Part shown: positions 7,320 to 64,000 of the stretch, one piece after another | Layout of the letters: every line of letters begins with the position of its first letter | Position numbering within the stretch: position 1 is the first letter of the stretch | Notes under the pieces: generated by a model | Told to the model about the DNA's origin: nothing | What the model saw: only the letters and a program-made list of their open reading frames with translations | Databases searched by the model: none | Program-made: the position numbers and the translations under genes | IMG/VR virus record: IMGVR_UViG_2698536687_000001 | Source: a virus | Taxonomy: Duplodnaviria > Heunggongvirae > Uroviricota > Caudoviricetes | Strand: one strand, 5' to 3' | Length of the DNA: 64,000 nucleotides

Positions 7320-8512
7320 TAATCATCATCCCCGTATAGCTTGCGGGTAACTTCTTCGTCTTCCTCCTCGTCTTCGTCCAGGTCTTGTTCCAGCCATGGG
7401 TCGTTTGATACACCTTCAGTATCAACATCTCCATAACCGCCTGTATCAACGATATCGGCGATTTCTTCCCTACGCTGCTCAATCCACAATGCGGCATCGG
7501 CGCGGCGGTTGGCGGCCCGTTCTCGCGCAACTTTGTCCAGATCTTCAAGAGAAGGGCCACCAACGGCTGTTTGCCTTTCCTCATCATCGGTATTGGTCTT
7601 AGGAGCACGCAGATCGGCTTTGATTTGCTCCAGCATCAGGGGCGGCACTTTCCCGCCATGCGCCTCGATGAATTCAGCTGCTTCCAGCACTGACCAGTTA
7701 TTTTCACGCTTTCGTTCGTATGCCAGCTTAACAATGCCAGCTTGCCCCATAGATAAAGCGTGCTTTTCCGCCTCCCGGCTTTCTTTTCGATAGTTATTCC
7801 GGATGCTGTAAATGGTGTTGATCAGGCTGCTTATCTGCGCGGAACAGCTGTTTAGCATGCTCGCGATACGGTATTCAGGCGGAGTACCTTCATCATCGTC
7901 TTTTTGCTGATCGCGCATTTCCTGCACCAGGCGAATACACGTATCCCTGGCGTTCTCCAGCATAAGGAGATGAGAAAGAGACTTTTCCAGAAGAGTGGTT
8001 TCCAGAACATCGGCCCCGGACCGACGCAACATAGCGCGCGCGGCCTTCCGCGCTTCAACGTTATCTATCAGGTAATCGCCAGCTTCGAATTCAAAGCGTT
8101 CACCATCATCATCCAGGGTGTCGCGTTCCAGGCGATCACGTAAGGTCCGGTGGGCGCGGGTGATCACGTCATGATCATCAGAACGATCATTTATGCGCTT
8201 ATTTTGGCGCTTCGCATTCTCGACTGCGGCACTGACAACGGCATTAACCCTTTGTTTTTCCGCTATTTCAGCCGCAATGTGATCACCTGCATGTTGATCA
8301 TTAGAGTGATCAATGATCATGCTTTTTAGTGGCTTCCTGACTGGCTTATTTGGCTTGCGGCTGTCCGCTGTCCTGGTGTCTTCTTTGAAGGCACGGAGAT
8401 AACGACGTGCAGTATTAGGGTTAAGATTAAACTCGGCGGCATACTGTGCGATGGTGTAACCACCATCTCGCGCCAGGCGAGCAAAATTCTTCTTGTGATC
8501 GTCCCAGGTCAC
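7319..8512 (-). CDS. pacA: Terminase small subunit/pacase PacA-like, 397 aa
   Basis: 397-aa ORF containing the clustered TGATCA hexamers of a pac site in its 5-prime part. Confidence 0.8.
8161..8319. other. pac: pac packaging site (two clusters of Dam-methylatable TGATCA hexamers)
   Basis: TGATCA at 8161, 8172 and CGATCA at 8185 on one side; TGATCA at 8280, 8295, 8307, 8314 on the other; 3+4 arrangement about 160 bp apart inside pacA as described for P1. Confidence 0.8.
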
Positions 8513-8597
8513 TTATGCTTCCTTTCGTAAAAACTCTTTTTGACGCGAGGGTAACGAAAGTCACATGTCAAAAGGCCCGGAACGGGCAAGCAATCAA

Positions 8598-9050
8598 TCA
8601 GATACGTACGGATGTGGCATTACCGTAATGACGGTGCTGACGGGCTACCTTATTGAAAAGTTGACGCGCCATTACCCAAGGCTGGTGTTCCCGGCGTTCC
8701 TTTTCGTCCTGCGTCATATAGAGTTCGTTCTGGAGTTTTTCATCAAACCGGCGCGGCGCGCGGCTGCGGCGAAAGAATTCAGGATTCAGAGAGTGGATCT
8801 GAAATCTACGTGGGCGTGTACTGTCATCAATCAAAACAGACGAATACTTAGACACAGCGATAGCCTTTAAGCGCAGATAAACGTCGCGCTTATCGACATC
8901 CAGATGCGGGTATTCCTTTTCAAGGATTGCTGCGAGTTCTTTCGCTGATAGAAGAGATTTGGTGCGGATCATGTAATCCGCAATCTCATACGATGTTATT
9001 CGTAAGTGATTTATTTCCATGAAGTGGCGTCCCTGCCAGTTAAGTAACAT
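8598..9050 (-). CDS. lpa: Late promoter activator Lpa-like, 150 aa
   Basis: 150-aa ORF immediately upstream of pacA and preceded by a C1 operator-like site, as for P1 lpa. Confidence 0.7.
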   Translation of the reverse strand: MLLNWQGRHFMEINHLRITSYEIADYMIRTKSLLSAKELAAILEKEYPHLDVDKRDVYLRLKAIAVSKYSSVLIDDSTRPRRFQIHSLNPEFFRRSRAPRRFDEKLQNELYMTQDEKERREHQPWVMARQLFNKVARQHRHYGNATSVRI

Positions 9051-9120
9051 CCTGTCACCTACTGATTAGCCCATGTCAACTAATCAACGTGGAATATAAT
9101 ACCCTAGATTAAATAAATAG

Positions 9121-9137
9121 CAATACATTAGAGCAAT
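9121..9137 (-). promoter_or_regulatory. C1 operator-like site upstream of lpa
   Basis: CAATACATTAGAGCAAT, core ATTAGAGCAAT intact, 3 flank mismatches. Confidence 0.5.
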
Positions 9138-9138
9138 T

Positions 9139-10182
9139 TTATCTAACGTTCGACGAGTGACTTGTGATAGCGCCGACTCCAAGCGCGTAATCAAAGAACA
9201 ATCGTTGATGCATCGCCAGCCTACCGTGCGTCTTCTCCCAATTATCGCGGTCACGCTCAATATCACGTTGGCATGACTGGCACAGAGGAATTGCGTAAAT
9301 GTCATGCGCGCATAATCGACTATGACGAACGATATAAGGCGTAATGTGAGCGCCAGCTCCCGCCGCTCCACACCCACAGCATGGACGGGAAGCAACAAAG
9401 TCCATGTACTCAGGTAATTTTAGCGATTGCAGTTTTGGGATTTTGAAATGCGCCATGCCAGGGTCGGAGTCAACATCCACAGGGCATACTTTTGCACGCA
9501 TCGGCGCGGCGCGTTCTTCCATCATCTGAACATATGCTGTAGCGCGATCGTCATACGGGCGAATATCCGCCTCTTTCAGAGGTCCGCTATCCTGCGTTGC
9601 GGCTTTCATCTTATTTATTGATATACGGCAAACTTCTTCCGGCATCAGGTGCATCATGTTGCGCATGAAAGCCCACCAGCACAGTTCCTGAATACTTAAA
9701 TCATGGCCATCTGAAAGCCCCATTTCCTGACGGGCGACATCCAGTATCCAGTTAACGCGATTATTATGCAGCGTTTCTTTCAGCTCATTAAAACCACGCA
9801 TCCGGTAATGGTTATCGTGATGCCAGCACAACAACACCGCGCTATTATCTCGTTCAGCGTGGACAATATGGTTGTCACACCAGCTACGATCTGCGGCCTG
9901 GCATCGCCCCTCTTTCCTGCGCAACCACGCCACCAGCGCGTCAATTCCACCAATACGACGAAACAGCTCATCGCTGTTAAAAAACGGCTGCAACGCCTCA
10001 TTTGTTGCCATGGTTTGCTCGGAAACAACGAGGCCGTCGTCCATGTGCTCGATTAACTCACGCGGCACCGGCTCCATAATAAATTTACGGCCAGCCTCCA
10101 CCAGCTTTCTGACTTCCTGATCCACTTTGAATGTGGCGACGCCAAGCTCTTTTTGTACAAAGGGAGTAATAATGGCTTTCAC
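9139..10182 (-). CDS. Hypothetical Cys/His-rich protein, 347 aa (post-doc operon position)
   Basis: Long ORF downstream of doc; C-terminal Cys cluster; no domain recognised. Confidence 0.5.
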
Positions 10183-10209
10183 ATCACACCTTTCATCACT
10201 GATTGGGCT

Positions 10210-10389
10210 TTATCTGCTGCCCGGCATTCTCTGTTTAAGCACAACCATTTCCTGACGGCATAACACAGCAATAGCGGTCCTGGCACCAATTTGCTTACCA
10301 ACCAGGTATTGCTTTACCTCGCGGCGACTCACGCCATCAAGAAGCATCTTTAACGCTTCACGGGACAACTTGTTGTATTTACGTGCCAT
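10210..10389 (-). CDS. Small hypothetical protein about 59 aa (post-doc position)
   Basis: ORF 10210-10410 overlaps doc 3-prime end; internal Met at 10389 assumed as start. Confidence 0.35.
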   Translation of the reverse strand: MARKYNKLSREALKMLLDGVSRREVKQYLVGKQIGARTAIAVLCRQEMVVLKQRMPGSR

Positions 10390-10393
10390 TAAT

Positions 10394-10774
10394 CTACTCC
10401 GCAGAACCATACAATCTACGTAACGTGTCGGCGACAGAAGATACAGATATCTCGCCAGTCGCAGCGCCTACAGTAAGGTCTGCCAGTTCAGGTGAATCAA
10501 ATACCTGCACCCCGTTACGGCGTAGAAATAACAGCGCACTGTTTAGCGCGGTACGCTTATTGGCATCATTGAATATATGCCCTCTCGCTGTAGCCACCAG
10601 GTAGGTGGCGGAGACTTCGAAAAGGTCGGTGATCTCTTCGTAGGCAACTCTGGCCTGAACTCTCCCGATAATGGCCTCTGCCCTACCCGGATCTGACATT
10701 CCCGGCAGGCCGCCGTAGCGGTTTATATTCGCATCATGAAGCGCAATAAGTTCTTCCGGTGATATATGCCTCAT
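10394..10774 (-). CDS. doc: Doc toxin (death on curing), 126 aa
   Basis: 126-aa [20 protein letters not shown]... recognised from memory as P1 Doc (Fic-fold kinase toxin); start overlaps phd stop. Confidence 0.9.
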
Positions 10775-10995
10775 TATCGGTTAACCAGTTCCTTGTTGGT
10801 GGAGTCCAGGGTGTCAAACAGGGATGCAAATTCAGCATCCAGCGCCGCTTTTTTGTAGGCTTCGAAAGTAGCCTTGCTGACAATTACTGCTGGCTCACGG
10901 CCTCTGCGGGTGATTTCAACCTCTTCCCCGGCCTCAACATTGTTGAGCACTTCAGAAAGGTTGCCGCGCGCGGTACGGAAGTTAATGGATTGCAT
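10774..10995 (-). CDS. phd: Phd antitoxin (prevent host death), 73 aa
   Basis: 73-aa ORF immediately upstream of doc with overlapping stop/start; size and context match Phd. Confidence 0.88.
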
Positions 10996-11002
10996 AAATA
11001 CC

Positions 11003-11025
11003 TCGTGTACTCGTTATGTGTACAC
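11003..11025 (-). promoter_or_regulatory. Candidate phd/doc operator palindromes
   Basis: GTGTAC at 11005-11010 and palindrome GTGTACAC at 11018-11025 just upstream of phd start. Confidence 0.4.
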
Positions 11026-11171
11026 AATTATAAACTTCACAGGCATAAAGCACCAGCACTTTGCGGCTTAACAAACCTCTAGGCAGGTCATTCGTAGCCT
11101 AATGTCCGAACTGCTAAAGCATCCAAGTTGCTGTAGAATCACCGCCAATTACATAAGCCTGAAATAAGTGG

Positions 11172-12734
11172 ATGAAAATGACAAGTATTCAACAACGTGC
11201 AGAGCTTCATCGTCAAATCTGGCAAATTGCTAACGATGTCAGGGGTTCGGTCGATGGATGGGATTTTAAGCAATACGTTCTGGGCGCACTTTTCTACCGT
11301 TTTATCAGCGAAAATTTTTCCAGTTATATTGAAGCCGGTGATGACAGTATCTGTTATGCGAAACTGGATGACAGCGTAATTACTGATGACATTAAAGACG
11401 ATGCCATCAAAACTAAAGGCTACTTCATCTACCCCAGTCAGCTTTTCTGCAACGTAGCTGCGAAAGCAAATACTAATGACAGACTGAATGCAGATTTAAA
11501 CAGCATCTTCGTTGCTATCGAAAGTTCTGCTTACGGTTATCCTTCAGAAGCTGACATCAAAGGTTTGTTTGCTGATTTCGATACCACCAGTAACCGCCTG
11601 GGTAACACCGTTAAAGATAAAAATGCCCGCCTAGCTGCGGTTCTGAAAGGGGTTGAAGGGTTAAAACTTGGTGACTTCAACGAACATCAGATTGACCTGT
11701 TCGGTGATGCCTATGAGTTCCTGATCTCTAACTATGCGGCAAATGCCGGTAAGTCAGGCGGCGAGTTCTTTACACCGCAGCACGTCTCTAAGCTGATTGC
11801 ACAACTGGCTATGCACGGGCAGACCCACGTTAACAAAATCTACGACCCGGCAGCAGGCTCCGGTTCGCTGTTGTTGCAGGCTAAAAAACAGTTTGATGAC
11901 CATATCATCGAAGAAGGTTTTTTTGGTCAGGAAATCAACCATACGACCTATAACCTGGCGCGTATGAACATGTTTTTGCACAACATCAACTACGACAAGT
12001 TTGATATCAAGCTGGGCAATACGCTGACTGAACCGCACTTCAGAGATGAAAAACCGTTTGATGCCATCGTTTCTAACCCGCCGTATTCGGTGAAATGGAT
12101 TGGCAGCGATGACCCGACGCTGATTAACGATGAACGTTTTGCCCCAGCTGGCGTTCTGGCCCCCAAATCCAAAGCTGACTTTGCGTTTGTATTACATGCG
12201 CTGAACTATCTTTCTGCCAAAGGTCGTGCTGCGATTGTTTGCTTCCCGGGTATTTTTTACCGTGGCGGTGCGGAGCAGAAAATCCGTCAGTATCTGGTCG
12301 ACAATAACTATGTCGAAACCGTGATTTCACTGGCACCGAATCTGTTCTTTGGCACCACCATTGCCGTCAATATTCTGGTGTTGTCTAAACATAAAACCGA
12401 TACCAACGTTCAGTTTATTGACGCCAGCGAGCTATTCAAAAAAGAGACTAATAACAACATCCTGACTGATGCCCATATCGAACAGATTATGCAGGTATTT
12501 TCCAGCAAGGAAGATGTTGCTCATCTGGCAAAATCTGTCACGTTTGAGGCCGTTGTCGCTAATGACTATAACCTGTCGGTAAGCAGCTATGTGGAAGCGA
12601 AAGATAACCGCGAAATTATCGATATCGGTGAGCTGAATGCTGAGCTGAAAACCACGGTCAGCAAAATCGACCAGTTGCGTAAAGATATTGATGCGATTGT
12701 GGCTGAAATTGAAGGCTGCGAGGTGCAGAAATGA
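11172..12734 (+). CDS. hsdM: Type I restriction-modification methyltransferase subunit HsdM (type IC-like), 520 aa
   Basis: N6-adenine MTase motifs ([14 protein letters not shown] at SNPPYS); 520 aa; stop overlaps hsdS start. Confidence 0.9.
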
Positions 12735-13981
12735 GCGAGATGAGTTATCTGGAAAAATTGCTGGATGGGGTTGAGGTTGAATGGAAAGCAGTGGGCGATA
12801 TCGCCGGGTATTCAACAACCAAAGTTGATGCTGATAAACTTGATGCCACTTCATTCGTTGGCGTTGATAATCTCCTTGCTGATAAAGGCGGTCGCATTGA
12901 TGCCACCTATCAGCCTAATACGGCACGTTTAACTGCCTATGAGCCAGGTGATATTCTTTTAGGTAATATTCGCCCATATTTAAAGAAAGTTTGGATGGCG
13001 GAGAATAATGGCGGGTGCAGTGGTGATGTCCTTGCTATACGCATTTTAGCAGACTGTAAAAAAATTATTAGTCCAGAATATCTCTACTATGCATTATCGT
13101 CGGATTCATTTTTTTCTTACAGTATGCAGCACGCTAAAGGGGCAAAGATGCCTCGAGGCAGTAAAGATGCAATTTTAAACTATCAAATACCCATCCCTTG
13201 TCCCAGCGCCCCGGGAAAATCCCTTGCCATCCAGTCTGAAATCGTTCGGATTCTGGATAAATTTACTGCACTTACCGCTGAACTTACCGCTGAGCTTACC
13301 GCTGAGCTTAACATGCGTAAAAAACAGTACAACTACTATCGCGACCAGTTGTTTAGTTTTAAAGAGAGTGAGGTTGAGTGGAAGACCTTAGGGGAAATTG
13401 GCCATTTTACCCGAGGTAAACGTTTTGTTAAAACAGATATGCTTTCTGAAGGTTATCCATGTATTCATTATGGAGAAATGTATACTTATTACAACGTATG
13501 GACAAATAAAACAAAGTCATTTGTTAGCCATGAACTGGCAAGTAAATTAAGAGTTTCAGAGTATGGTGATGTGATAATTGTTGCTGCCGGGGAAACAATT
13601 GAAGATATAGGAAAAGGAACAGCTTGGTTGGGTAAATCAAATGTTGTTTTTCATGATGCTTGCTTTTCATACAGATGCTTACTAAACCCTAAATATATTG
13701 CATACTTTACTCGAACAAAAATATTCCATGATCAAATAAAAAAACACATATCTTCAGGAAAGATATCAGCAATTAACGCAAATGGGTTATCCAAGGTAAA
13801 AATACCTATGCTTTCAGCGAAGGAACAAGCTCGCATTGTCGACATACTCGATAAATTCGACACCCTGACTAACTCTATCACTGAAGGTCTTCCGCGTGAA
13901 ATCGAGTTGCGCCAGAAACAATACGAGTACTATCGTGATTTACTGTTCAGTTTCCCAAAACCTGAAACTGTCAGTAATTAA
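12731..13981 (+). CDS. hsdS: Type I RM specificity subunit HsdS, 416 aa, with three central TAEL repeats
   Basis: Two target-recognition domains separated by central conserved region [13 protein letters not shown]; terminal conserved region [14 protein letters not shown]. Confidence 0.9.
13272..13307 (+). repeat. 3 x 12-bp direct repeat (CTTACCGCTGAR) encoding TAEL x3 in HsdS central spacer
   Basis: cttaccgctgaa cttaccgctgag cttaccgctgag read directly. Confidence 0.95.
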
Positions 13982-14102
13982 TTGACCATTGCTACCGACC
14001 GGGCCACCTTAACACCCGGTCAGTATATAGACTATTTTTTACACGCTGGAAGTCACAATTACCGCCCTTCCGGCCCTTGCCAGACGGCACAAAGGATGCG
14101 CT

Positions 14103-17100
14103 ATGACTCATCAAACACACACCATTGCTGAATCTAATAACTTTATCGTTCTTGATAAGTACATCAAAGCTGAGCAAACAAGCGACAGCTACCAGAGCGA
14201 ATCGGACCTGGAACGTGAACTGATTCAGGACCTGCGAAATCAGGGCTATGAATTTATATCCGTAAAATCACAGTCGGCAATGCTGGCCAATGTTCGGGAA
14301 CAGCTTCAGAACCTCAATGGTGTGGTGTTTAATGACAGCGAATGGAGGCGTTTCACGGAGCAGTATCTGGACAACCCGAGCGATGGCATTCTGGATAAGA
14401 CCCGTAAAATCCATATCGACTATATTTGCGACTTTATTTTTGATGACGAGCGTCTTGAGAATATCTATCTGATAGATAAAAAGAATCTCATGCGTAATAA
14501 GGTGCAGATTATCCAGCAGTTTGAACAGGCGGGTTCTCATGCTAACCGTTATGACGTCACGATCCTGGTTAATGGCTTACCACTGGTACAAATCGAACTG
14601 AAAAAGCGTGGTGTAGCGATTCGTGAGGCTTTCAACCAGATACATCGTTACAGTAAAGAGAGTTTTAACAGCGAAAATTCCCTGTTTAAGTATCTGCAGC
14701 TGTTCGTCATTTCCAACGGCACTGATACCCGTTATTTTGCCAACACCACAAAGCGCGATAAAAACAGTTTTGACTTCACCATGAACTGGGCTAAATCAGA
14801 CAATACACTGATTAAAGACCTCAAAGACTTTACCGCTACCTTTTTCCAGAAACATACTCTGCTTAATGTTCTGGTGAACTACAGCGTTTTTGACAGCAGT
14901 CAGACACTACTGGTAATGCGACCGTACCAGATTGCCGCCACCGAGCGCATTCTGTGGAAAATTAAGAGTTCCTTTACAGCGAAGAACTGGTCAAAACCGG
15001 AAAGCGGTGGGTATATCTGGCACACTACCGGTTCTGGTAAAACCCTCACCAGCTTTAAAGCCGCGCGTCTGGCAACAGAGCTGGACTTTATTGATAAAGT
15101 CTTCTTTGTGGTCGACAGGAAAGACCTCGATTACCAGACCATGAAGGAATATCAGCGTTTTTCGCCAGACAGCGTCAACGGCTCGGAAAATACCGCAGGC
15201 CTTAAACGAAATCTGGATAAGGACGATAACAAAATTATCGTCACTACTATTCAGAAACTTAATAACCTGATGAAAGCAGAAAGCGACCTGCCTGTATATA
15301 ATCAGCAAGTGGTGTTTATATTTGATGAATGCCACCGCAGCCAGTTTGGAGAAGCGCAGAAAAACCTGAAGAAGAAATTCAAACGCTATTATCAGTTTGG
15401 TTTTACCGGCACACCTATTTTCCCGGAAAACGCCTTAGGCTCAGAAACGACCGCCAGCGTATTTGGTCGTGAATTGCATTCGTATGTAATTACCGATGCG
15501 ATTCGTGATGAAAAAGTGCTCAAATTCAAGGTGGACTACAACGATGTGCGGCCACAGTTTAAGTCTTTAGAGACAGAAACTGACGAGAAAAAACTAAGTG
15601 CGGCTGAAAATCAGCAGGCGTTTCTTCATCCCATGCGTATTCAGGAAATCACGCAATATATCCTGAACAACTTCCGCCAGAAAACCCACCGTACCTTCCC
15701 AGGCTCCAAAGGCTTTAATGCCATGCTGGCAGTGAGCAGCGTGGATGCCGCGAAAGCCTATTACGCGACGTTTAAACGGTTACAAGAAGAAGCCGCTAAT
15801 AAATCGGCTACCTATAAACCGCTGCGTATTGCGACAATCTTCTCCTTTGCCGCCAATGAAGAACAAAATGCCATTGGTGAAATTTCCGATGAAACTTTTG
15901 ATACCAGCGCAATGGACAGCAGTGCTAAAGAGTTTCTGGACGCTGCAATTCGTGAATATAACAGCCATTTTAAAACTAACTTTAGCACCGACAGTAACGG
16001 TTTTCAGAACTACTATCGTGATTTAGCCCAGCGGGTTAAAAATCAGGATATCGATCTGCTAATTGTCGTGGGGATGTTTTTAACCGGCTTCGATGCTCCA
16101 ACATTGAACACGCTATTCGTCGATAAAAACTTGCGTTTTCACGGCCTGATGCAGGCATTTTCCCGCACCAACCGTATTTATGATGCAACTAAAACCTTCG
16201 GTAATATCGTCACTTTCCGGGATCTGGAACGCTCAACTATTGATGCCATAACGCTGTTTGGTGACAAAAACACCAAAAATGTGGTGTTAGAAAAGAGTTA
16301 TACAGAGTATATGGAAGGCTTTACTGATGCTGCTACAGGTGAAGCTAAACGCGGCTTCATGACAGTAGTTTCAGAACTGGAACAACGGTTCCCTGACCCT
16401 GCCAGTATTGAAAGTGAAAAAGAGAAGAAAGACTTCGTTAAACTGTTTGGCGAATACCTGCGTGCCGAGAACATCCTGCAAAACTATGATGAATTTGCCA
16501 CGCTAAAAGCCCTGCAACAAATCGATCTTAGCGATCCTGTTGCGGTAGAAAAATTCAAAGCAGAACATTATGTGGATGATGAAAAGTTCGCTGAATTGCA
16601 AACAATTCGTCTCCCTGCTGATCGCAAGATTCAGGATTATCGTTCTGCCTATAACGATATTCGCGACTGGCAGCGCCGTGAGAAAGAAGCTGAGAAAAAA
16701 GAGAAATCAACCACTGACTGGGATGACGTAGTTTTTGAGGTCGATTTGCTGAAGTCTCAGGAAATAAACCTGGATTATATCCTTGGACTGATTTTCGAAC
16801 ACAACAGACAAAATAAAGGCAAGGGCGAAATGATCGAAGAGGTCAAACGCTTAATTCGTTCAAGCCTGGGGAACCGAGCGAAAGAGGGCCTGGTGGTCGA
16901 TTTTATTCAGCAAACGAACCTGGATGATTTACCAGATAAAGCCAGTATCATTGAGGCATTCTTTACGTTTGCTCAACGCGAACAGCAACGTGAAGCAGAA
17001 GCATTGATAAAAGAAGAAAATCTCAATGAAGAAGCAGCAAAACGCTATATTCGCACGTCTTTAAAACGCGAATACGCCACCGAAAATGGCACAGAATTAA

Positions 17101-17219
17101 ACGAAACATTACCAAAACTTAGTCCATTGAATCCGCAATATAAAACGAAAAAACAGGCAGTTTTCCAGAAAATCGTCTCGTTTATTGAGAAGTTTAAAGG
17201 CGTAGGCGGAAAAATATAG
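14103..17219 (+). CDS. hsdR: Type I RM restriction endonuclease/translocase subunit HsdR, 1038 aa
   Basis: Separate ORF 120 bp downstream of hsdS; helicase motifs (TGSGKT Walker A, DECH box) and N-terminal nuclease region. Confidence 0.9.
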
Positions 17220-17298
17220 CCCAATTCGTGTTTTTCTTGCGGGTTCTTAATTAAACCCGCAAGAGACCGTGGGGTTCCAAATGGCTAATATACTCCCC

Positions 17299-17385
17299 TT
17301 ACCCATGCGCGACGATGCCGCCAAAAGTGATAGAGAACAGCCAGAAATAGATCGCGGTCATAATGATTTTGAATACCGTGTTCAT
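17299..17385 (-). CDS. Candidate small hydrophobic peptide, 28 aa (MNTVFKIIMTAIYFWLFSITFGGIVAHG)
   Basis: Short ORF with RBS-like AGGAGCTG, located just downstream of a C1 operator-like site; not in supplied ORF track (below length cutoff). Confidence 0.25.
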   Translation of the reverse strand: MNTVFKIIMTAIYFWLFSITFGGIVAHG

Positions 17386-17469
17386 ATCTTCAGCTCCTGT
17401 GATTGATTGGATATATGCCGCGCCCCTTGCGGCATGTTTTTATTTTCACTTTCTCTGTTTTAAAAAACA

Positions 17470-17486
17470 AGATTTATTAGAGCAGC
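17470..17486 (-). promoter_or_regulatory. C1 operator-like site
   Basis: AGATTTATTAGAGCAGC, 3 mismatches. Confidence 0.45.
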
Positions 17487-17992
17487 TATTGTTGATGGAG
17501 AAGCACGTTTTCATACTCCCTGACCATTAACGTAAGTACGCCGTGACTCCTGAAAACACGCGCTACTTCAATCTTATCTTCCAGCGCGAACGCAATTTTA
17601 CTTAGACCAATTTTCTTAAGGAGATTAATCTTTGCTGGACCATCATTTCTGTCATCGGTGGCAGGACGCATAGATAGCAAAGGCTCAGCCCCGTTTGTTA
17701 CGTGCTTACGCAACCAGGCTCGTGTTTTATCCCTGGCTATCTCACAGCGCCCGGTTACAAACCAGAGCGTGTAAATGCAGGACAACTGGCGCACCATATC
17801 AATAACTGGAGTTATGGGTGTATCGGTGTCACAGGCGAGATTAAACTCGTTCCAGTCCTTTGTTAATGCACCTTTGCCTGGTGGCGGAAGCAAATGCAGC
17901 CTGTCTTCAGTTGCTTCTGATATTGTTCCATCAATATCGACTACGACGATGTACGGACGTTCCAGGTGTGCCTGTTTGTTGAAAATACTCAA
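17486..17992 (-). CDS. HAD-superfamily phosphatase-like protein, 168 aa
   Basis: Motif VVDIDGT near N-terminus (HAD motif I DxDGT). Confidence 0.55.
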   Translation of the reverse strand: MSIFNKQAHLERPYIVVVDIDGTISEATEDRLHLLPPPGKGALTKDWNEFNLACDTDTPITPVIDMVRQLSCIYTLWFVTGRCEIARDKTRAWLRKHVTNGAEPLLSMRPATDDRNDGPAKINLLKKIGLSKIAFALEDKIEVARVFRSHGVLTLMVREYENVLLHQQ

Positions 17993-18064
17993 ATGCCCTC
18001 CTCATTGGACGAAAAAAATGCTGGTGGGCGCACTCCACCAGCATTAAAAGTGACACTGTAACTA

Positions 18065-19327
18065 TCAGCGAACGTAAATAGTACCGCCGTTCTCTTTTTC
18101 CCATGCATCGCTACGTGCATAGCAAACATCGAGAAGTCTTCTTGCCGCAGTTTCCTCTAAACCCAATTCAACAACCAACTGCTCATGACGGCGGGTAACT
18201 ACATCAAATAGGCTATGCAGCCCTTTATTGGCCAGTTCATCAATGAATTCCGGTTCGAACGGCAGCTCTGCCTCTGCCAACATAACCTCTTGCGCCCACT
18301 CAACTCGACGGACCAATTCCGGGCGGCGGCTTTCCATCTCTTTACAGATCAATTCATGGAAGAACTCTACCCAACCTTCCGGCTGGAACTCGCGGAAAAT
18401 TGCCAACGGCTGGAAGTTTGGCATCAACCATTCGTTGATTCGGATATCAATGGCATAGCCCATGTCGCAGCAGAACTGATAAGCAAAGTCCAGCTTAGAA
18501 ACGATATAAGGACGCTCGTTATTGAACTCTTTAGGCGATGAGATCCCATAAGCCAGGAGGCGCGGGAAGAAGGAGATTTGCCCTAACGTCGGATGAAGTT
18601 TGCTTGCAGGGAAACGGCGCTCAGTAATGCCATACATTTCCTTCTTGAGCGTCGCAAATTTGGCATTCTCATTAACCAGCGCGGTAACCTCTGCTTTTTT
18701 ATTAGCAAATGCCACGCGCGCTTCGCTTGCATCTTTAATAGTTTTTTTGAGCTGTTGGTTAAGGTCGGCGACCTGCTTACGCAGTTCCTGTCGCTCGCTT
18801 TTAGCTTTGTTATAGCGTTTCTCAAGGTTAAAAGGATCAAGTTTCATGATCTCTTTATATTGAGATTTTAGCGTTGAAATCTGTGAGTTCCGCAGTTCAA
18901 CCATCGCGGTCATTTCATTGAGTTTTGTTTCCAGCTCAATGCTTATACGTTCGGCATTATCAGCACGCTGGTTGGCGTCATGCGTCGCATCGTCGATCGC
19001 GTCCTGTTGCTGGCGTTTCAAATGTTCAATTTGTAGCTGAAGCTCTTCAATTTCTTTACCCTTCAGACCGAGATCCAACTGCATATTTTCAGCTGCATCT
19101 ACCAGGGAGTTATGGCTATCAGCTTCTGCGTTATAAACATCAATAAGCTGTGCGTGAAGCATCTCCGCTGACTGAACCGCATTATCAAAAAAACGCGCTG
19201 TGAGGTCATCACAACTAACGCGGCGTTGCGCGGCCCGGATGTTCTGGATAATGGCCGGGATACCGGCATTCAGGACGTCAGGGATAGATACATTTTCGAT
19301 TGATTGGTTTTGTGCTGAAGTGATCAT
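18065..19327 (-). CDS. Hypothetical coiled-coil protein, 420 aa
   Basis: Long heptad-rich central region (EELQLQIEHLKRQQQDAIDD...); no catalytic motif recognised. Confidence 0.5.
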   Translation of the reverse strand: MITSAQNQSIENVSIPDVLNAGIPAIIQNIRAAQRRVSCDDLTARFFDNAVQSAEMLHAQLIDVYNAEADSHNSLVDAAENMQLDLGLKGKEIEELQLQIEHLKRQQQDAIDDATHDANQRADNAERISIELETKLNEMTAMVELRNSQISTLKSQYKEIMKLDPFNLEKRYNKAKSERQELRKQVADLNQQLKKTIKDASEARVAFANKKAEVTALVNENAKFATLKKEMYGITERRFPASKLHPTLGQISFFPRLLAYGISSPKEFNNERPYIVSKLDFAYQFCCDMGYAIDIRINEWLMPNFQPLAIFREFQPEGWVEFFHELICKEMESRRPELVRRVEWAQEVMLAEAELPFEPEFIDELANKGLHSLFDVVTRRHEQLVVELGLEETAARRLLDVCYARSDAWEKENGGTIYVR

Positions 19328-19328
19328 T

Positions 19329-19547
19329 TCAAAGTTCCGTATTAGCTTGTGCTTCGGTCATTTTTCCTAAGTATGAAGGAGGAAGGACTACGCAATTTGT
19401 ATCCAGTCCCTCACCTATGGCAGCCTGTAAAATTCTGGCTAAGGTGAGTCTCTTGTTGCGATACCTGGTGATGACATGCCTGATACCGCCGGTCGGCGTA
19501 ACAAAGGCGATCAGCCAGTAGTGATATTTCCGTCGGAATGGCCACAT
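19329..19547 (-). CDS. Hypothetical protein, 72 aa
   Basis: ORF directly downstream of paired C1 operator-like sites; stop abuts next gene start. Confidence 0.4.
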   Translation of the reverse strand: MWPFRRKYHYWLIAFVTPTGGIRHVITRYRNKRLTLARILQAAIGEGLDTNCVVLPPSYLGKMTEAQANTEL

Positions 19548-19561
19548 AGTGCACCTTGTAG

Positions 19562-19578
19562 ATTGCTCTAATAAAAAA
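19562..19578 (+). promoter_or_regulatory. C1 operator-like site (one of a facing pair)
   Basis: ATTGCTCTAATAAAAAA, 3 mismatches at the 3-prime end. Confidence 0.5.
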
Positions 19579-19610
19579 CGTGATGAGTGTACATCACGTT
19601 TTAAAAATAT

Positions 19611-19627
19611 GGAATTATTAGAGCAAT
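19611..19627 (-). promoter_or_regulatory. C1 operator-like site (one of a facing pair)
   Basis: GGAATTATTAGAGCAAT, core intact, 3 flank mismatches. Confidence 0.5.
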
Positions 19628-19628
19628 A

Positions 19629-20330
19629 TTATTCTGATTCTCGCTCAAAAAATGAGCTGATAAGGGGAAGCCAATCCTCTGACACTTCGCGAGGTCGCGG
19701 TTTGCCGTGGAAAAAGATTATTCGGCAGTCTTTTGGTAATGCCCCATTCCCCCTGGAGTAACGCGCGCTCGCATATTTTGAACCAGGTTCCACAACATCG
19801 GCCTTGTAACTTACAAACCATCCTGGATACAGATCCTGAAATGCTGGTGTATCATCGCCCATAACCTTTCGTAAGAACCCCTGGTCACCCCAGCACTCAG
19901 TAGTGACACAACGAGAAATCCAACCTTCCGGATCTTGCCAGAATGAACTCCAGATATGCGCTTTAACACTATTTGGTATCCACAGGGCACCGCTGCCACG
20001 ATATTGTGGATGGTAAAAATCCCTAAGCATGGTGAAGCTGGTTGGTGGATGCTCTAGGATTGGGCGTATATCACCGGCAATAACCGTGTCCAAATCCAGA
20101 TAGAACAGATCATCGGTTATATCCGGTCGGAACAACTCGATTTTCGCCCACCAGCCACGGCACTTTTGCCACTGGTTGATCAATGGGATAACTTTGACGC
20201 CAGGTACATGTAAACACTTCAGGTCTGTCAGGCAAATAATTTCATAGTCTTTTGGCAGTTGATTAACCAGCCACTGCACATCGGAAGCGTTATAGTCACC
20301 ACCAGAGCGAAGAACTAAAGCAATCTTCAT
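19629..20330 (-). CDS. Hypothetical protein, 233 aa
   Basis: ORF starting 3 nt after upstream phosphatase stop; no domain recognised. Confidence 0.5.
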
Positions 20331-59365: not shown

Positions 59366-59721
59366 TGGCCAACAATAATGAAATTGATCCTTTACTGACG
59401 CTGGAGTTATCCGGCGTAAAAACGTATGAGTCCCAGGAGGAGGCCTGGGGCGCTCGTTTATATGAGTGGCTAAACACTTATCAGGGTGAGGTATACGGAG
59501 ATCCGTCATGGGGCAATGTTTTACCGCAGTTTAAACACGAACCGACCAACTTGTCGCATGTTCAAATTGCGGTTGAGGCAATGCTGTTGCAAAAACTGAC
59601 GGTAGATTTACCTGACATACCGATTTCTGGCTTGTCAGTAGCCGAGGGAGATGCTTTTGATAAGTTGAAAATATCCATTCGTATCAGGGATATAACTATC
59701 ACACAGGACGTGGTGCTATGA
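59362..59721 (+). CDS. Hypothetical baseplate/tail protein, 119 aa
   Basis: Translationally coupled ORF after sit. Confidence 0.4.
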   Translation: MMANNNEIDPLLTLELSGVKTYESQEEAWGARLYEWLNTYQGEVYGDPSWGNVLPQFKHEPTNLSHVQIAVEAMLLQKLTVDLPDIPISGLSVAEGDAFDKLKISIRIRDITITQDVVL

Positions 59722-61151
59722 GTAAAACAACACCGACTAAAGACAGTATTCGTGCAGAGTTTGAAGAGCTTGTCGAGAAAGATTCATTCTGGTCGAAGTT
59801 TGTCGGCTCTCAATTTGTCTCGATGCTGACATTGTTTATTACCCAGATTGTCTACAGGTGCTTTCAGTATGCCGATGCGGCGCTGGCTGAAGGCTTTATA
59901 TCGACCGCGACGCGGCGTTCCTCTATCCTGGCAGCGGCAGAAACGAATAGTTACGTTGGTACCAAGCCAACACCGTCATCGGGGATGATTGAGATCACCG
60001 CCACAAGTGAAGATGCCCCAGCGGTAATCCCCAAAAACATGCCTTTAATATCTGACGACCAGTACCCTTACATGACTATGGATGTATGCAGGTTGGTTGA
60101 CGGCACCGGTACGGTAGAAGTGGCACAGTTGGAAATCCAGGAGGTGACATATACCGTTACGGCAGCCAAAGAATTTCTGGAAGTCGTGTTATCAAAGGCT
60201 CTCACTGCTGTCTGCTATAAGCTGGAAGTATTCGTGACGACCGATGGTAAGACCACGCAGTGGTCTTCCAGCACTATGTTCCGGTTAGCCGGTAGTAAAA
60301 GCCAGGTCTACGTTGAGTTTTATAAACCATCCGAGCAGTTGGGGGTTCGATTCGGCGATGGGCTAATTGGGCAAATACCGCCAGAAGGCTCGACAATTAC
60401 GCTTAAGGTATGGTGCACCAACGGCGATATAACCCTGGTTGCTGGCCAAAACCTGACGCCTGTCGATTCTGCGGCTAATTTAGCTAATTTGATTTCAGTT
60501 AAGACAACGACACCTATAACCGCAGGTACCGATGCCGAAACAACGGAGATCACACGTAACCGTGCACAATATTACCTTGCCTATGATGATCAGGTCGTAT
60601 GGGGCGGGGACTATACGTATTTTCTGGTGCGTAACATCCCGGGACTGTCCTGGGTAAAGGCATGGGGCGAGGGTCAGCAAGAAAAATTAGATGGTGCTTA
60701 TAATGTTCAGAATATCAATAAGATATTTATTTCAGGATGGCATCCAAACAAAAGCCAGTCAGAGCTTGAAGAAATGATCTTGGCTGCCTTTAAGAAGGTG
60801 CCGAATGAGTTGAACAAGAAATTCTCGTATAAAGAGGTCAGAAAACTACCCTTTAAGATCACCATCACCGGGCGGATATCGGCAAGCCTGACCATTGAGA
60901 ACGTGACTGATGAGCTGAAGTCGGCACTGGAAACAAAATTTGGGCGTGACTCAACTTTCTTTGATCCGAACCGTGTCGGCAAGTACATCCTAATCAAGAA
61001 AAAAGACGTTTGGGCATTTATCGAAACGCTGGGTTATTTCCGCGACTTTTATCTGGAATTTGTCGAGTGGAATGAGTCCAACGGCTTTTACGATTTCGTT
61101 TATCTGGATACAGAAAACTCCACCTTTAATATTTTGTATGAGGAGGAGTGA
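59718..61151 (+). CDS. Putative baseplate protein, 477 aa
   Basis: Coupled ORF in tail module. Confidence 0.4.
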   Translation: MSKTTPTKDSIRAEFEELVEKDSFWSKFVGSQFVSMLTLFITQIVYRCFQYADAALAEGFISTATRRSSILAAAETNSYVGTKPTPSSGMIEITATSEDAPAVIPKNMPLISDDQYPYMTMDVCRLVDGTGTVEVAQLEIQEVTYTVTAAKEFLEVVLSKALTAVCYKLEVFVTTDGKTTQWSSSTMFRLAGSKSQVYVEFYKPSEQLGVRFGDGLIGQIPPEGSTITLKVWCTNGDITLVAGQNLTPVDSAANLANLISVKTTTPITAGTDAETTEITRNRAQYYLAYDDQVVWGGDYTYFLVRNIPGLSWVKAWGEGQQEKLDGAYNVQNINKIFISGWHPNKSQSELEEMILAAFKKVPNELNKKFSYKEVRKLPFKITITGRISASLTIENVTDELKSALETKFGRDSTFFDPNRVGKYILIKKKDVWAFIETLGYFRDFYLEFVEWNESNGFYDFVYLDTENSTFNILYEEE

Positions 61152-61987
61152 TGCAGCGTTCCTGGTTTAATAACCGGCTTACATCAGCTAAGCAAAAGTC
61201 ATTGCTCTATAAATCATTGGCTGATTTGGTTCAGTCAATGATGGATACCTTTGTTGACCCATGGTTGGAGCGAATTACCAACCGGAAGTCTATTTTTTCC
61301 ATGAGCAAGGAGGATCTGGAGACCAGGACAAATGAACTTGGCCAGTTCTTTACTATTAGAACGTCGAACTCATCTTCCGTTCCGATGTTGTTACAACAGC
61401 GTCTTGATGAGATTCACTTTAAGGGGACTGAACGCCCTATAAACCAGACAATTTACCGCGAATTTAACGGTATTTCTGTTTTATGGGATCCGATATATGC
61501 ACCGGTGGATCTTGAGCGTCATCCCTATGGCACGGTTCTAATACCAGAAAGCACACTGGAGACTACCGGCGGCACATTCGGCGAGATGTTTCTGACTTCC
61601 AGAGGGATGATCAGTATTCCCATAAACGACCTGGCCCGGACAATGGGGATTACTGGCACGATAGATCAGTCCGCAATTACAGAAGAAATTCTCAGAAAGT
61701 TTAATCAGTTCGTAAAGCCTCTACTGCCACTGCATATAGTGTTTGATGGGCTTACGCTCTATTTGTCGGTTGTTGTAAATGAACAGGCCGACATGATCAC
61801 TTTGAACGAGATTTCTGATACCGAAAAAGCGTACTGCTGGTTTGAAACTTCGGATACAACTTCGCTTACTGGAGTTACGTCGATTAGCGCTCCGATCACT
61901 GCAACGCCGGGCGGCACTATTGTGAAAGCAACGCCTACGTTTGATCGCACCCGCGCAGATGATTTGCTGCTGGATAGCGATGCCTGA
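61148..61987 (+). CDS. Putative baseplate/tail protein, 279 aa
   Basis: Coupled ORF in tail module. Confidence 0.4.
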   Translation: MMQRSWFNNRLTSAKQKSLLYKSLADLVQSMMDTFVDPWLERITNRKSIFSMSKEDLETRTNELGQFFTIRTSNSSSVPMLLQQRLDEIHFKGTERPINQTIYREFNGISVLWDPIYAPVDLERHPYGTVLIPESTLETTGGTFGEMFLTSRGMISIPINDLARTMGITGTIDQSAITEEILRKFNQFVKPLLPLHIVFDGLTLYLSVVVNEQADMITLNEISDTEKAYCWFETSDTTSLTGVTSISAPITATPGGTIVKATPTFDRTRADDLLLDSDA

Positions 61988-62065
61988 CAATCACCCCGTC
62001 CGTAGGGCGGGGTGACAAGTTACTTCTCTTACAATGAGGCTTCACAACATTGATTAGGGAAAATC

Positions 62066-62500
62066 ATGTCTGACGTCTCAACAAACCTCTATAAGAGTCA
62101 GTTGTTGGACTATTACTATCAGCGGCGCGCTGAATCGTCCATTAACAAAGGCTCTCGATTTTTAATCAGCAAGGCCGTTTTCGGTACCAGTTCGCTGGTT
62201 ACCAAGAAAGGAGATGGCACTTATGAGATTGGAGAACTGCCAAAGGCTTTCGATCTGGCAGAACTGACCAGTCAATTTTGCACCATCAACCTCGTGCCAA
62301 CCTACTCAGGTGGGATAATTACTGTCCGAATGGACCTTGATCAAAGCCAGTTGCAGGAAGGGAAAAACTACCCATTCAACACTCTGGTTGTTCTGGATAA
62401 CGAGAACAAGCCAATCGCCATTATTTGTGTCCAGGAAGACTCGCTGTATGTGGGCAAAACATATACCGCAGTTATGGCCATAAACACGACTACAGCATAA
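62066..62500 (+). CDS. Hypothetical tail protein, 144 aa
   Basis: ORF immediately upstream of tail-fibre gene. Confidence 0.4.
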   Translation: MSDVSTNLYKSQLLDYYYQRRAESSINKGSRFLISKAVFGTSSLVTKKGDGTYEIGELPKAFDLAELTSQFCTINLVPTYSGGIITVRMDLDQSQLQEGKNYPFNTLVVLDNENKPIAIICVQEDSLYVGKTYTAVMAINTTTA

Positions 62501-62511
62501 GGATATGCTTG

Positions 62512-64000
62512 ATGAATGACGTTACAGTTGTCACATCGGTTACTTACCCATCACCCGAGTCGTTGGCTCTGGTGGCTGATGTGCAATACCACGAACCATA
62601 TCTGTCAGCCGCGCTAAACCGAAAATTCAGGGGGATTGTTGACCCGGGATTTTATGCCGGTTTCTTACCTAAGCCTGGCGGTGGGATGAACCTGTTAATC
62701 ACCTCAGTGGATGGTGATAAAACCGCAGGCGCGGCGTCGGTGGATATTGGTGAATTCTACCAGGTAACTATTCAGCAACGTAAGGATATTTCTCTTGCAC
62801 TTAGTGCAGGCAAGAAATATGCAATTGTGCTGAAGGGAAGATACCTCCTTGGAGAAGATACCTATCAGGTGAATACCGCGTCACATATTCATGCGGCTGA
62901 ATTTGTTGCCAGAACCTATACCGATTCATATCAGTTAGGAGATGGGGAGCTGCTTGTTTGTACGGTGAATATCCCTGCTGGTGTATCTGCCATTACCCAG
63001 GAGATGATTGATACATCCGAGCGTATCAACCGCACGATCGGCATTGATATTTCAGACTCTGTAACCAGTAGCAGAAGTGATGTTGCTGCAAGTTCGCTGG
63101 CAGTTAAAAAAGCTTACGATCTGGCGAAAAGTAAGTATACGGCGCAGGATGCAAGCACAACGCAAAAGGGATTAGTTCAGCTCAGTAGCGAAACTAACAG
63201 CGACAGCGAAACAATGGCGGCTACCCCTAAAGCCGTTAAGTCTGTAAAAGATCTTGCTGATACCAAAGCGCCAATAGAAAGCCCGAGTCTGACAGGAACG
63301 CCAACCGCGCCGACGGCAGCGCAAGGTACAAATAGCACGCAGATCGCAAATACAGCCTTTGTTAAGGCAGCTATAACGGCACTTATCAACGGTGCACCTG
63401 GCACACTGGATACGCTTAAAGAAATAGCTGCTGCGATCAATAACGACCCGAATTTCAGCACAACTATCAACAATGCTCTGGCTCTTAAAGCTCCTTTAGC
63501 AAGTCCTGCATTAACGGGAATACCTACTGCGCCTACCGCTGCACAGGGTACGAATAACACGCAGATTGCTACGACCGCTTATGTAAGAGCTGCCATATCC
63601 GCATTGGTTGGTTCATCACCAGAAGCTCTTGATACCCTGAATGAGCTTGCCGCAGCACTTGGTAATGACCCGAACTTTGCGACAACAATGACAAATGCGC
63701 TGGCAGGCAAACAGCCTCTGGATGCAACTTTAACCGCGCTCGCTGGCCTTGCGACTGGTGCAAACAAACTGCCTTATTTCACCGGTAAGGATACGGTAGC
63801 GCAGACTGATTTAACGTCAGTCGGTCGCGATATTCTGGCTAAAACAAGCACACTGGCCGTTATCCAATACCTTGGTTTAAGAGAACTCGGTACCAGCGGT
63901 GAAAAGATCCCCCTGTTGAGTACGGCTAACACATGGAGTGCGCGCCAGACTTTCAACGGCGGGATCACCGGGGCGCTGACAGGGAACGCCGACACCGCGA
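62512..64000 (+). CDS. Tail fibre protein, 5-prime part (open to window end)
   Basis: ATG at 62512; no stop to position 64000; contains tandem repeat SPSLTGTPTAPTAAQGTNSTQIANTAFVKAAI / SPALTGIPTAPTAAQGTNNTQIATTAYVRAAI typical of tail-fibre shafts. Confidence 0.7.
   Translation, partial: MNDVTVVTSVTYPSPESLALVADVQYHEPYLSAALNRKFRGIVDPGFYAGFLPKPGGGMNLLITSVDGDKTAGAASVDIGEFYQVTIQQRKDISLALSAGKKYAIVLKGRYLLGEDTYQVNTASHIHAAEFVARTYTDSYQLGDGELLVCTVNIPAGVSAITQEMIDTSERINRTIGIDISDSVTSSRSDVAASSLAVKKAYDLAKSKYTAQDASTTQKGLVQLSSETNSDSETMAATPKAVKSVKDLADTKAPIESPSLTGTPTAPTAAQGTNSTQIANTAFVKAAITALINGAPGTLDTLKEIAAAINNDPNFSTTINNALALKAPLASPALTGIPTAPTAAQGTNNTQIATTAYVRAAISALVGSSPEALDTLNELAAALGNDPNFATTMTNALAGKQPLDATLTALAGLATGANKLPYFTGKDTVAQTDLTSVGRDILAKTSTLAVIQYLGLRELGTSGEKIPLLSTANTWSARQTFNGGITGALTGNADTA

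Follow-up and report, generated by a model that had tools for sequence, protein, structure and literature searches.

The 64,000-nucleotide stretch of viral DNA analysed here (the window) very probably carries a complete type IC (EcoR124-family) restriction-modification system, borne by a P1-like (IncY-type) phage-plasmid and placed in the known variable slot between phd/doc and pap. The open reading frame list contains three intact hsd genes, all on the plus strand and in the order M-S-R, with the lengths and strand that a first-pass annotation of the same DNA had given (Table 1). A PADLOC scan assigned the three genes to type I restriction-modification and to nothing else, and an Rfam scan of positions 9000-19800 at E <= 0.1 produced no match. 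The span previously proposed for the locus, 11040-17290, agrees closely with the non-P1 cassette as mapped here. We infer from the encoded subunits that the system both methylates and restricts DNA.

As a discovery the locus carries little weight, since its family and its genomic context are both of textbook kind and it is very common. It is nonetheless a clean example of P1-like phage-plasmids carrying and exchanging defence cargo at a fixed slot. A modestly new point, as far as the sequences go, is that its hsdS allele belongs to a natural series with one, two and three repeat units that parallels EcoR124I/II.

Table 1. Features of the hsd cassette and its flanks, in window coordinates.
Feature	Position	Strand	Basis
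doc, P1 addiction toxin, 126 aa	10394-10774	-	Fic/DOC Pfam; TIGR01550 DOC_P1, 133 bits
phd, antitoxin, 73 aa	10774-10995	-	PhdYeFM_antitox, TIGR01552; P1 homology
phd promoter/operator region, P1-derived	10996-11071	-	P1 annotation transfer, junction alignment
Type IC hsd cassette, 6223 bp, 43.4% G+C (flanks 47-49%)	11072-17294	+	BLAST map and junction alignment against P1
hsdM leader, 100 bp, presumed hsdMS promoter region	11072-11171	+	Inferred only
hsdM, N6-adenine methyltransferase subunit, 520 aa	11172-12734	+	TIGR00497, 649 bits
hsdS, specificity subunit, 416 aa	12731-13981	+	Methylase_S (Pfam), two stretches
Target-recognition domain 1, ~aa 19-152	12785-13186 (approximate)	+	Unlike EcoR124I, alignment to 7bst_A
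12-bp tandem repeat, 3.8 copies	13266-13310	+	Tandem Repeats Finder
Target-recognition domain 2, ~aa 221-361	13391-13813 (approximate)	+	Unlike EcoR124I, 33% G+C
Stable hairpin just past hsdS stop, T run ~10 nt on	13993-14025	+	-14.7 kcal/mol, z = -3.35
Sigma-70-like hexamers TTAACA-18-TATTTT, candidate hsdR promoter	14009-14038	+	9/12 consensus matches, weak given shuffle excess
hsdR, translocase/endonuclease subunit, 1038 aa	14103-17219	+	TIGR00348, 771 bits; EcoR124_C, 241 bits
G+C-rich hairpin, 11-12 bp, right past hsdR stop	17235-17264		-26.8 (+) / -26.0 (-) kcal/mol, z ~ -4
28-codon hydrophobic ORF (MNTVFKIIMTAIYFWLFSITFGGIVAHG), P1-derived, downstream of Op88/PpmgT	17302-17388	-	Terminates within a few bp of the junction
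Intrinsic-terminator-like hairpin and T run, in P1-derived DNA	17413-17437	+	-15.7 kcal/mol, z = -4.0
C1 operator Op88/OpmgT (GCTGCTCTAATAAATCT; P1: ATTGCTCTAATAAATCT)	17470-17486	-	14/17 to consensus
pap, 168 aa, last gene of Op86-controlled pmgR-pmgS-pap, convergent with hsdR	17486-17992	-	HAD_PNKP, P1 annotation

HsdM and HsdR as EcoR124-family subunits

The alignment to EcoR124 that had been suggested as a check bears out the family assignment. HsdM is identical to EcoR124 HsdM (PDB code 7bst_D) at 515 of 520 residues, leaving five differences, and HsdR aligns over its full length with that of EcoR124I (2w00_A; residues 1-1038 on 1-1038, 2294.8 bits), with only a handful of visible substitutions. 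Chance is ruled out as the source of these matches, which are full-length and have E = 0 against solved subunits. The subunits carry all the catalytic motifs, those of the methyltransferase, the nuclease and the ATPase: HsdM has motif I, DPAAGSG, at 225 and motif IV, NPPY, at 302, and HsdR has the nuclease residues D151...E165-x-K167 followed by QxxxY at 179, GSGKT at 310 and DECH at 408. The Pfam domains of HsdR are HSDR_N, SWI2_SNF2, T1R_D3-like and EcoR124_C.

The term 'type IC-like' in the first-pass annotation was therefore correct as to EcoR124-family membership but too weak in its wording, since HsdM and HsdR are in essence those of EcoR124 and the divergence is limited to the recognition domains of HsdS; judged by its sequence, the system is a true type IC member. 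The family was originally defined by subunit complementation and antibody cross-reaction with EcoR124 (PMC3874165), and with ~99% identity in both HsdM and HsdR it is very likely that the window subunits would complement EcoR124. The likeness to the prototype EcoR124I/II systems (plasmids R124 and R124/3) extends to the M-S-R order and to the conserved regions and TAEL repeats of HsdS. The carriers differ, however, in that EcoR124 resides on a conjugative plasmid with P1 remnants, whereas the window has an apparently complete P1-like phage-plasmid backbone.

It is exceedingly improbable that the locus represents another type I family (IA, IB, ID or IE), or a locus of the prr type, which harbours an anticodon nuclease, a reading that could draw on the presence of generic type I domains and on nothing more. 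A better fit to type IA or IB had been named beforehand as the outcome that would count against type IC, but HsdM scores 1157.6 bits against EcoR124 HsdM and 66.8 bits against that of type IA EcoKI, and EcoR124 is the sole HsdR under E = 0.001 in a search of the PDB. Types IA and IB (EcoKI, EcoAI) were thus rejected, their HsdM and HsdR matches being weak or absent and their gene order, hsdR-hsdM-hsdS, differing from M-S-R. In the prr locus prrC lies between hsdS and hsdR; the window has no prrC, and the 121-bp gap between its hsdS and hsdR leaves no room for one.

Replacement of a P1 gene block at a known slot

Homology to P1 around the locus is confined in the BLAST map to 8001-11071 and 17295-20100, placing the junctions with P1 DNA at 11071/11072 and 17294/17295; exact matching to P1-type plasmids likewise starts at 17295. 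Both junctions coincide with points at which the P1 GenBank record notes homology to the DNA flanking the EcoDXXI and R124/3 hsd loci, and by the note in that record the P1-derived downstream flank of EcoR124 (R124/3) begins at the same position as that of the window. From phd to pap, the flanks of P1 (NC_005856) are 97.4-97.7% identical to those of the window, including doc, phd, Pphd, Op88/PpmgT, pap and pmgS. Between them, where the window has hsdMSR, P1 has on the opposite strand a block of 3487 bp, humD-lxr-hot-upfO/N/M-pmgV-pmgU-pmgT, described as 'variable region 8' of P1-like phage-plasmids (PMC9603915). None of the genes from humD to pmgT occurs anywhere in the window or in any part of the related plasmid pRHB14-C22_4, ruling out a simple insertion. 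The cassette, earlier described as inserted, is thus a replacement relative to P1.

On the left, phd and doc form one operon behind Pphd, whose -10 and -35 elements fall at ~11027-11032 and ~11050-11055 by transfer of the P1 annotation, with the palindromic operator elements GTGTAC / GTGTACAC at ~11005-11030. This flank, promoter region included, is 97.7% identical to P1. The P1 annotation and the junction alignment place the divergent hsd genes just past the phd promoter/operator region, as had been noted. The proximity of an addiction module to a restriction system, previously singled out, is equally real but not peculiar to the window, being the canonical context of enterobacterial type IC loci. 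Type IC loci flanked by P1 DNA were described by Tyndall et al. (1997), as cited in PMC12707154. EcoDXXI and EcoprrI are the other classical type IC systems with P1-homologous flanks; phd/doc lies upstream of them and, by the P1 record notes on the EcoDXXI locus, the downstream P1 DNA starts where it does in the window. The architecture beside phd/doc has therefore been known in P1-derived DNA since 1997.

The slot is frequently occupied in this way. Among PLSDB plasmids the phd|hsdM junction was counted 713 times and the P1-type phd|humD junction 453 times, and type IC hsdS-like DNA is found in 1303 of 5426 complete E. coli genomes. Two records in the phage collection have the cassette: in phi456, a plaque-forming phage (PMC10967188), an IS5-type transposase interrupts hsdS, and in 673R5 the annotations of hsdM and hsdR are in fragments. 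The broken hsdS and the fragmentary gene annotations make these records uninformative on restriction-modification function. The cassette looks damaged in both, and selection for intactness cannot be assumed in every carrier.

Specificity and repeat number of the hsdS allele

As in type IC HsdS generally, where the start and end of the protein lie in a conserved dimerisation region and a central conserved region bears the TAEL repeats (PMC3874165), the N-terminal, central and C-terminal regions match HsdS of EcoR124 (7bst_A, 251 bits). Both recognition domains, in contrast, align poorly and are unlike their EcoR124I counterparts, and half-sites other than the GAA/RTCG of that enzyme are accordingly predicted. 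Matches of the recognition domains to solved S subunits are weak (7vru_C, E = 3e-7). The window HsdS is a rare, uncharacterised allele. Its first recognition domain recurs with other partner domains in Klebsiella and Raoultella plasmids (query 1-655/669, 95-97%). Database names attached to the HsdS matches are generic.

Three TAEL repeats, as earlier reported, are read directly at residues 182-193 (nucleotides 13274-13309), in the first coiled-coil helix of HsdS. The first-pass annotation also stated correctly the rule known from EcoR124I/II, namely that the number of TAEL repeats in type IC HsdS fixes the gap in the target, N6 versus N7, hybrids acting as predicted (PMC3874165). Three repeats are likewise present in EcoR124II and in the classical type IC systems EcoDXXI and EcoprrI (PMC3874165).

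The same allele occurs with other repeat numbers. The 12-bp units number three in the window, two in the E. coli IncY P1-like plasmid pRHB14-C22_4 (CP057799.1) and one in an E. coli draft contig (ABBMWO010000031.1, L005; assembly GCA_019367825.1), the last two having the position, the neighbours and the HsdS recognition domains of the window. Across these three P1-like backbones a tract from ~12681 to 14042 that spans hsdS contains not a single substitution, the unit count being the sole difference, while the adjacent hsdM and hsdR, as well as the P1 backbone, diverge by ~2-7%. We take hsdS to be an exchangeable module, moving by recombination in the conserved 3' region of hsdM and 5' region of hsdR, with a repeat number that changes faster than point mutations build up. 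By the EcoR124I/II rule the half-sites recognised by the window enzyme would be those of the two-repeat pRHB14-C22_4 allele, with 1 bp more between them. It is conceivable, though improbable, that the 12-bp TAEL tract serves as a fast-switching contingency locus through which sibling P1-like plasmids shift target spacing among one, two and three units. The hallmarks of phase-variable type I systems (a recombinase alongside spare, silent copies of hsdS, or an extended simple-sequence tract in hsdS or hsdM) were not encountered in the 64-kb window, which has a single hsdS and only the in-frame 12-bp repeat of 3.8 copies. The series offers a neat test set for coiled-coil length against the spacing of a bipartite target.

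The third unit might instead be an artefact of assembly or consensus, or reflect a mixed population, the true allele being the common two-repeat form. The difference does amount to one unit of a short tandem repeat within an otherwise identical 1.4-kb tract, and the exact three-repeat allele was not met again in PLSDB, the complete E. coli genomes or a 15-billion-protein collection. Nor does that collection contain the exact HsdM or HsdS of the window, leaving the allele without independent confirmation, whereas HsdR has exact matches among other isolates in public data. Against an artefact, a repeat of 36-45 bp is far below any sequencing read length, a change of this kind gave rise to EcoR124I and II (PMC3874165), and the one-, two- and three-unit forms each lie on a different backbone, so that the tract truly varies in nature. 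We consider an artefact very unlikely, and three units the genuine state of the window allele.

Proposed working and expression of the cassette

By analogy with the family, hsdM and hsdS, which overlap by 4 bp (ATGA), would be translationally coupled, and their products would assemble into an M2S1 methyltransferase, placing an N6-methyl group on one adenine of either half-site in a bipartite, asymmetric target. Addition of HsdR would give an R2M2S1 complex which, on meeting unmodified targets, would translocate DNA at the expense of ATP and cleave at a distance. In a lysogen such a system would be expected to restrict incoming phage and plasmid DNA while marking the DNA of host and prophage.

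It is unlikely, though less so than an artefact in the repeat, that the genes are intact and the system nevertheless restriction-inactive or confined to modification, for example because three TAEL units are a poor fit for these two recognition domains or because expression is silenced. Two repeats dominate among the closest HsdS relatives (84 of 121 scored matches, a biased sample, against two with three repeats), and both this rarity and the failure to find the three-repeat form of the allele in the large protein collection, PLSDB or the complete E. coli genomes lend such a view some support, as do the disrupted copies in related phage records. The three reading frames, however, are full-length with every catalytic motif in place, and the exact HsdR recurs in other isolates. 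Moreover, three repeats go with activity in EcoR124II, EcoDXXI and EcoprrI, and hybrids engineered to have two repeats work, as do those with three (PMC3874165). An active restriction-modification system thus remains the preferred reading.

Transcription signals are less distinct than the genes. A consensus promoter scan gave fewer matches across the region than in its shuffles and no promoter-like site in the leader of hsdM; the hsdM and hsdR promoters are accordingly presumed ones. In EcoR124, hsdR has its own promoter and is transcribed apart from hsdMS. The hairpin just past the hsdS stop is a possible end of the hsdMS transcript, and together with the weak promoter-like match that overlaps it suggests that separate transcription of hsdR, which the first-pass annotation had assumed, is plausible in the window also. 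The C1 operator scan returned 15 sites, compared with 0.44 expected, none of them inside 11072-17294, and expression of the cassette should therefore be independent of the P1 immunity repressor.

On the right, what had been taken for the start of a C1-controlled operon proves to be the 3' end of pmgR-pmgS-pap, whose Op86 operators lie at 19562-19578 and 19611-19627, together with an orphaned Op88/PpmgT. The operon once served by the latter, from pmgT onward, belongs to the part replaced; only the 28-codon ORF is left downstream, a reading frame intact yet unannotated in P1, where it lies upstream of pmgT. The predicted PpmgT promoters at ~17442-17485 are orphaned like Op88 and face hsdR, and no obvious minus-strand terminator was seen between PpmgT and the 3' end of hsdR. 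This arrangement might couple restriction to the prophage switch: Op88/PpmgT would be silent in the lysogen, and on induction would yield the 28-codon ORF and an hsdR antisense transcript, with less restriction during phage replication. We regard this coupling as improbable, about as much so as an inactive system. The G+C-rich hairpin right past the hsdR stop has no U tail on either strand. Farther on, the terminator-like hairpin in P1-derived DNA would, on the hsd strand, stop hsdR read-through ahead of pap.

The hsd cassette and the EcoR124 family

By its sequence, the cassette is a genuine type IC restriction-modification system. Three hsd reading frames on the forward strand had been described in the first-pass annotation and were found intact at the sizes then given (see table), hsdM and hsdS overlapping by ATGA and a gap of 121 bp separating hsdS from hsdR. 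Family membership was assessed through comparison of HsdR and HsdM with all PDB chains. HsdR matched EcoR124I HsdR (2w00_A) end to end with 2294.8 bits and only scattered substitutions, and the PDB search returned no match at E = 0.001 other than EcoR124 entries. HsdM scored 1157.6 bits against EcoR124 HsdM (7bst_D), differing at 5 of 520 residues, whereas the type IA HsdM of EcoKI gave 66.8 bits, so that the subunits do not align better to type IA or IB. The earlier placement of the locus near EcoR124 thus holds, although the term 'IC-like' understates the membership. All catalytic motifs are present in both HsdM (DPAAGSG at 225, NPPY at 302) and HsdR (nuclease D151...E165-x-K167, QxxxY at 179, GSGKT at 310, DECH at 408).

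Features of the hsd cassette and its flanks (window coordinates)
Feature	Position	Strand	Remarks
Olpa, C1 operator	9121-9137		consensus scan
doc	10394-10774	-	left of cassette; then pdcA, pdcB (DUF968), lpa
phd	10774-10995	-	left of cassette, opposite strand to hsd
hsdM	11172-12734	+	intact, 520 aa; N6_Mtase, HsdM_N, TIGR00497 649 bits (Pfam, NCBIfam)
hsdS	12731-13981	+	intact, 416 aa; two Methylase_S stretches (Pfam)
Hairpin	13993-14025		support for separate hsdMS transcript
Weak promoter-like site	14009-14038		candidate for hsdR transcript
hsdR	14103-17219	+	intact, 1038 aa; HSDR_N, SWI2_SNF2, T1R_D3-like, EcoR124_C, TIGR00348 771 bits
28-codon hydrophobic ORF	17302-17388	-	MNTVFKIIMTAIYFWLFSITFGGIVAHG; directly downstream of Op88/PpmgT
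Terminator-like hairpin, canonical	17413-17437	hsd strand	within P1-derived DNA
Op88/OpmgT, C1 operator	17470-17486	-	consensus scan
pap	17486-17992	-	right of cassette
pmgS	18065-19327	-	right of cassette
Op86b, C1 operator	19562-19578		consensus scan
Op86a, C1 operator	19611-19627		consensus scan

From what is known of the family, HsdM and HsdS would form an M2S1 methyltransferase and, with HsdR, an R2M2S1 translocating endonuclease; a lysogen would be protected against unmodified DNA, and hsd expression would be constitutive and independent of C1. The hairpin and weak promoter-like site between hsdS and hsdR suggest that hsdMS and hsdR may be separate transcripts.

Replacement of a P1 segment

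The window is, on sequence grounds, a P1-like phage-plasmid, collinear with the E. coli IncY plasmid pRHB14-C22_4 (CP057799.1) through cre, c1, pacAB, the hsd region, tail genes, dmt and repA/parAB and onward. Homology to P1 covers 8001-11071 (97.7% identical) and 17295-20100 (97.4%), with no match between. The cassette (6223 bp, 11072-17294) stands in place of 3487 bp of P1 holding humD, lxr, hot, upfO, upfN, upfM, pmgV, pmgU and pmgT, none of which blastn or tblastn detected anywhere in the window or in the complete pRHB14-C22_4 sequence; what had been called an insertion is instead a replacement. The left junction is the humD stop codon, 16 bp past the Pphd -35 box (positions transferred from the P1 annotation), and the right junction falls within the pmgT ribosome-binding site, about 5 bp upstream of the start codon. 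The G+C content is 43.4% in the cassette and 47-49% in the flanks.

Scanning the window with the C1 operator consensus gave 15 sites where 0.44 would be expected; four are near the cassette, which itself contains none. The right-hand neighbour, previously taken for a C1-controlled operon, consists instead of the 3' end of pmgR-pmgS-pap, a unit under Op86 control, plus an orphaned Op88/PpmgT, the operon that it served being exactly the part replaced. In P1 the 28-codon ORF is likewise intact (MNTAFKIIMAAIYFWLFSITFGGIVAHG) though unannotated, and its stop codon overlaps with the ribosome-binding site of pmgT. In the window the stop of this ORF is directly followed by the hsd/P1 junction and then, encoded on the other strand, by the 3' end of hsdR; a strong hairpin lacking a U tail sits just 3' of the hsdR stop. 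The first two positions of Op88 are GC, against AT in P1, a change that also turns the pap stop from TAA to TAG; the predicted P2pmgT -35 box reads TTGCTC in P1 and CTGCTC in the window.

Neither the architecture nor its tie to phd/doc and P1 is new, and both are very common. Enterobacterial type IC hsd loci flanked by P1 DNA were reportedly described by Tyndall et al. in 1997. Notes in the P1 GenBank record give the doc-phd-Pphd segment as 98% identical to "sequence upstream of EcoDXXI hsd locus", and the segment immediately before pmgT as 96-98% identical to DNA that follows the hsd loci of EcoDXXI and R124/3; the limits annotated there coincide with the cassette junctions mapped here. The phd/hsdM junction (352-bp probe) was at least 80% covered in 713 PLSDB plasmids and the P1-type phd/humD junction in 453; the whole 7.3-kb region reached this coverage in 483 PLSDB plasmids and the hsdR/P1 junction in 258 plasmids. 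In P1-type records matching starts exactly at window 17295. Type IC hsdS-like DNA occurs in 1303 of 5426 complete E. coli genomes. At most, the novelty lies in an allele that joins three repeats to a rare pair of recognition domains.

HsdS and its TAEL repeats

High-confidence alignment of HsdS with its EcoR124 counterpart (7bst_A, 404 aa) is confined to the first 18 residues, a central stretch (residues ~153-220) and the last ~55. Both recognition domains (~19-152 and ~221-361) align poorly, so half-sites other than those of EcoR124I are expected. The central helix is encoded by a tract of 3.8 copies of a 12-bp unit (13266-13310), bearing out the three TAEL repeats noted at first pass. Also correct was the first-pass statement that repeat number sets spacer length in the EcoR124I/II pair: EcoR124I has two repeats and recognises GAA N6 RTCG, EcoR124II has three and recognises GAA N7 RTCG, three are also found in EcoDXXI and EcoprrI, and the gap of engineered hybrids shifts exactly as predicted from the repeats (PMC3874165).

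The recognition-domain pair is rare. None of the 5426 complete E. coli genomes covers at least 80% of the window hsdS, and only two PLSDB records do so, each an E. coli plasmid of 97,994 bp that comes from pooled pig faeces. A collection of 15 billion proteins lacks the exact 416-aa protein but has a 412-aa form (30 contigs) and a 408-aa form (one contig); the sole difference among the three is the number of TAEL repeats, 3, 2 and 1 respectively. From ~12681 to 14042 the window, pRHB14-C22_4 and the E. coli draft contig ABBMWO010000031.1 show zero substitutions and differ only by deletion of one or two 12-bp units. The adjoining hsdM and hsdR differ pairwise by roughly 2-7%. Together these comparisons argue that repeats are gained or lost more quickly than bases are substituted, and that homologous recombination moves hsdS as a module into hsdM and hsdR contexts that have diverged. 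Among the top matches, 4 of 69 recognition-domain groups have more than one repeat number, and only the window's group has three states. This natural 3/2/1 series parallels EcoR124I/II and is what known biology would lead one to expect; no earlier description of it was found. By analogy with the family, the window allele would share its half-sites with the two-repeat allele, the gap between them being widened by 1 bp.

The first ATG of hsdM (11172-11174; MKMTS..., as in EcoR124 HsdM) is AAG in pRHB14-C22_4, so that HsdM is annotated there as a 518-aa protein starting at the second ATG.

Other carriers and other loci

Two phage-collection records with the cassette were not counted as evidence for restriction-modification function. 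In phi456 (OR339795.1, 3932-6369) hsdS is interrupted by the gene for an IS5-type DDE transposase, labelled 'putative baseplate hub protein' in the record; in vB_EcoM-673R5 the annotated hsdM and hsdR are fragmentary. phi456 makes plaques (PMC10967188) and does show that infectious particles can be produced by a P1-like element without the humD-pmgT segment.

Elsewhere in the window, a 1095-aa ORF (30992-34279, -) resembles a fusion of Dam-type (D12) and C5 DNA methyltransferases like P1 Dmt, with Hint, LAGLIDADG_3 and Intein_splicing matches at ~aa 77-418; it looks like an intein-interrupted phage methyltransferase. The homologue in pRHB14-C22_4, of 1013 aa, is likewise long. Some 2.4 kb (27914-30292) have no megablast match to pRHB14-C22_4, which has ban (dnaB) and tciA-like genes there, and may be another variable cargo slot. 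Of the four ORFs in this stretch (28169-28501 +, 28555-29265 +, 29228-29698 -, 29847-30266 -), none has a Pfam family and one has a marginal PADLOC match to LeoBC (E = 1.7e-4). A further ~3.5 kb (59526-63068), likewise without megablast match to pRHB14-C22_4, contain ORFs without Pfam matches (61148-61987, 62066-62500) and a baseplate-J/gp6-like ORF (59718-61151), and are probably a divergent module of baseplate or tail-fibre genes.
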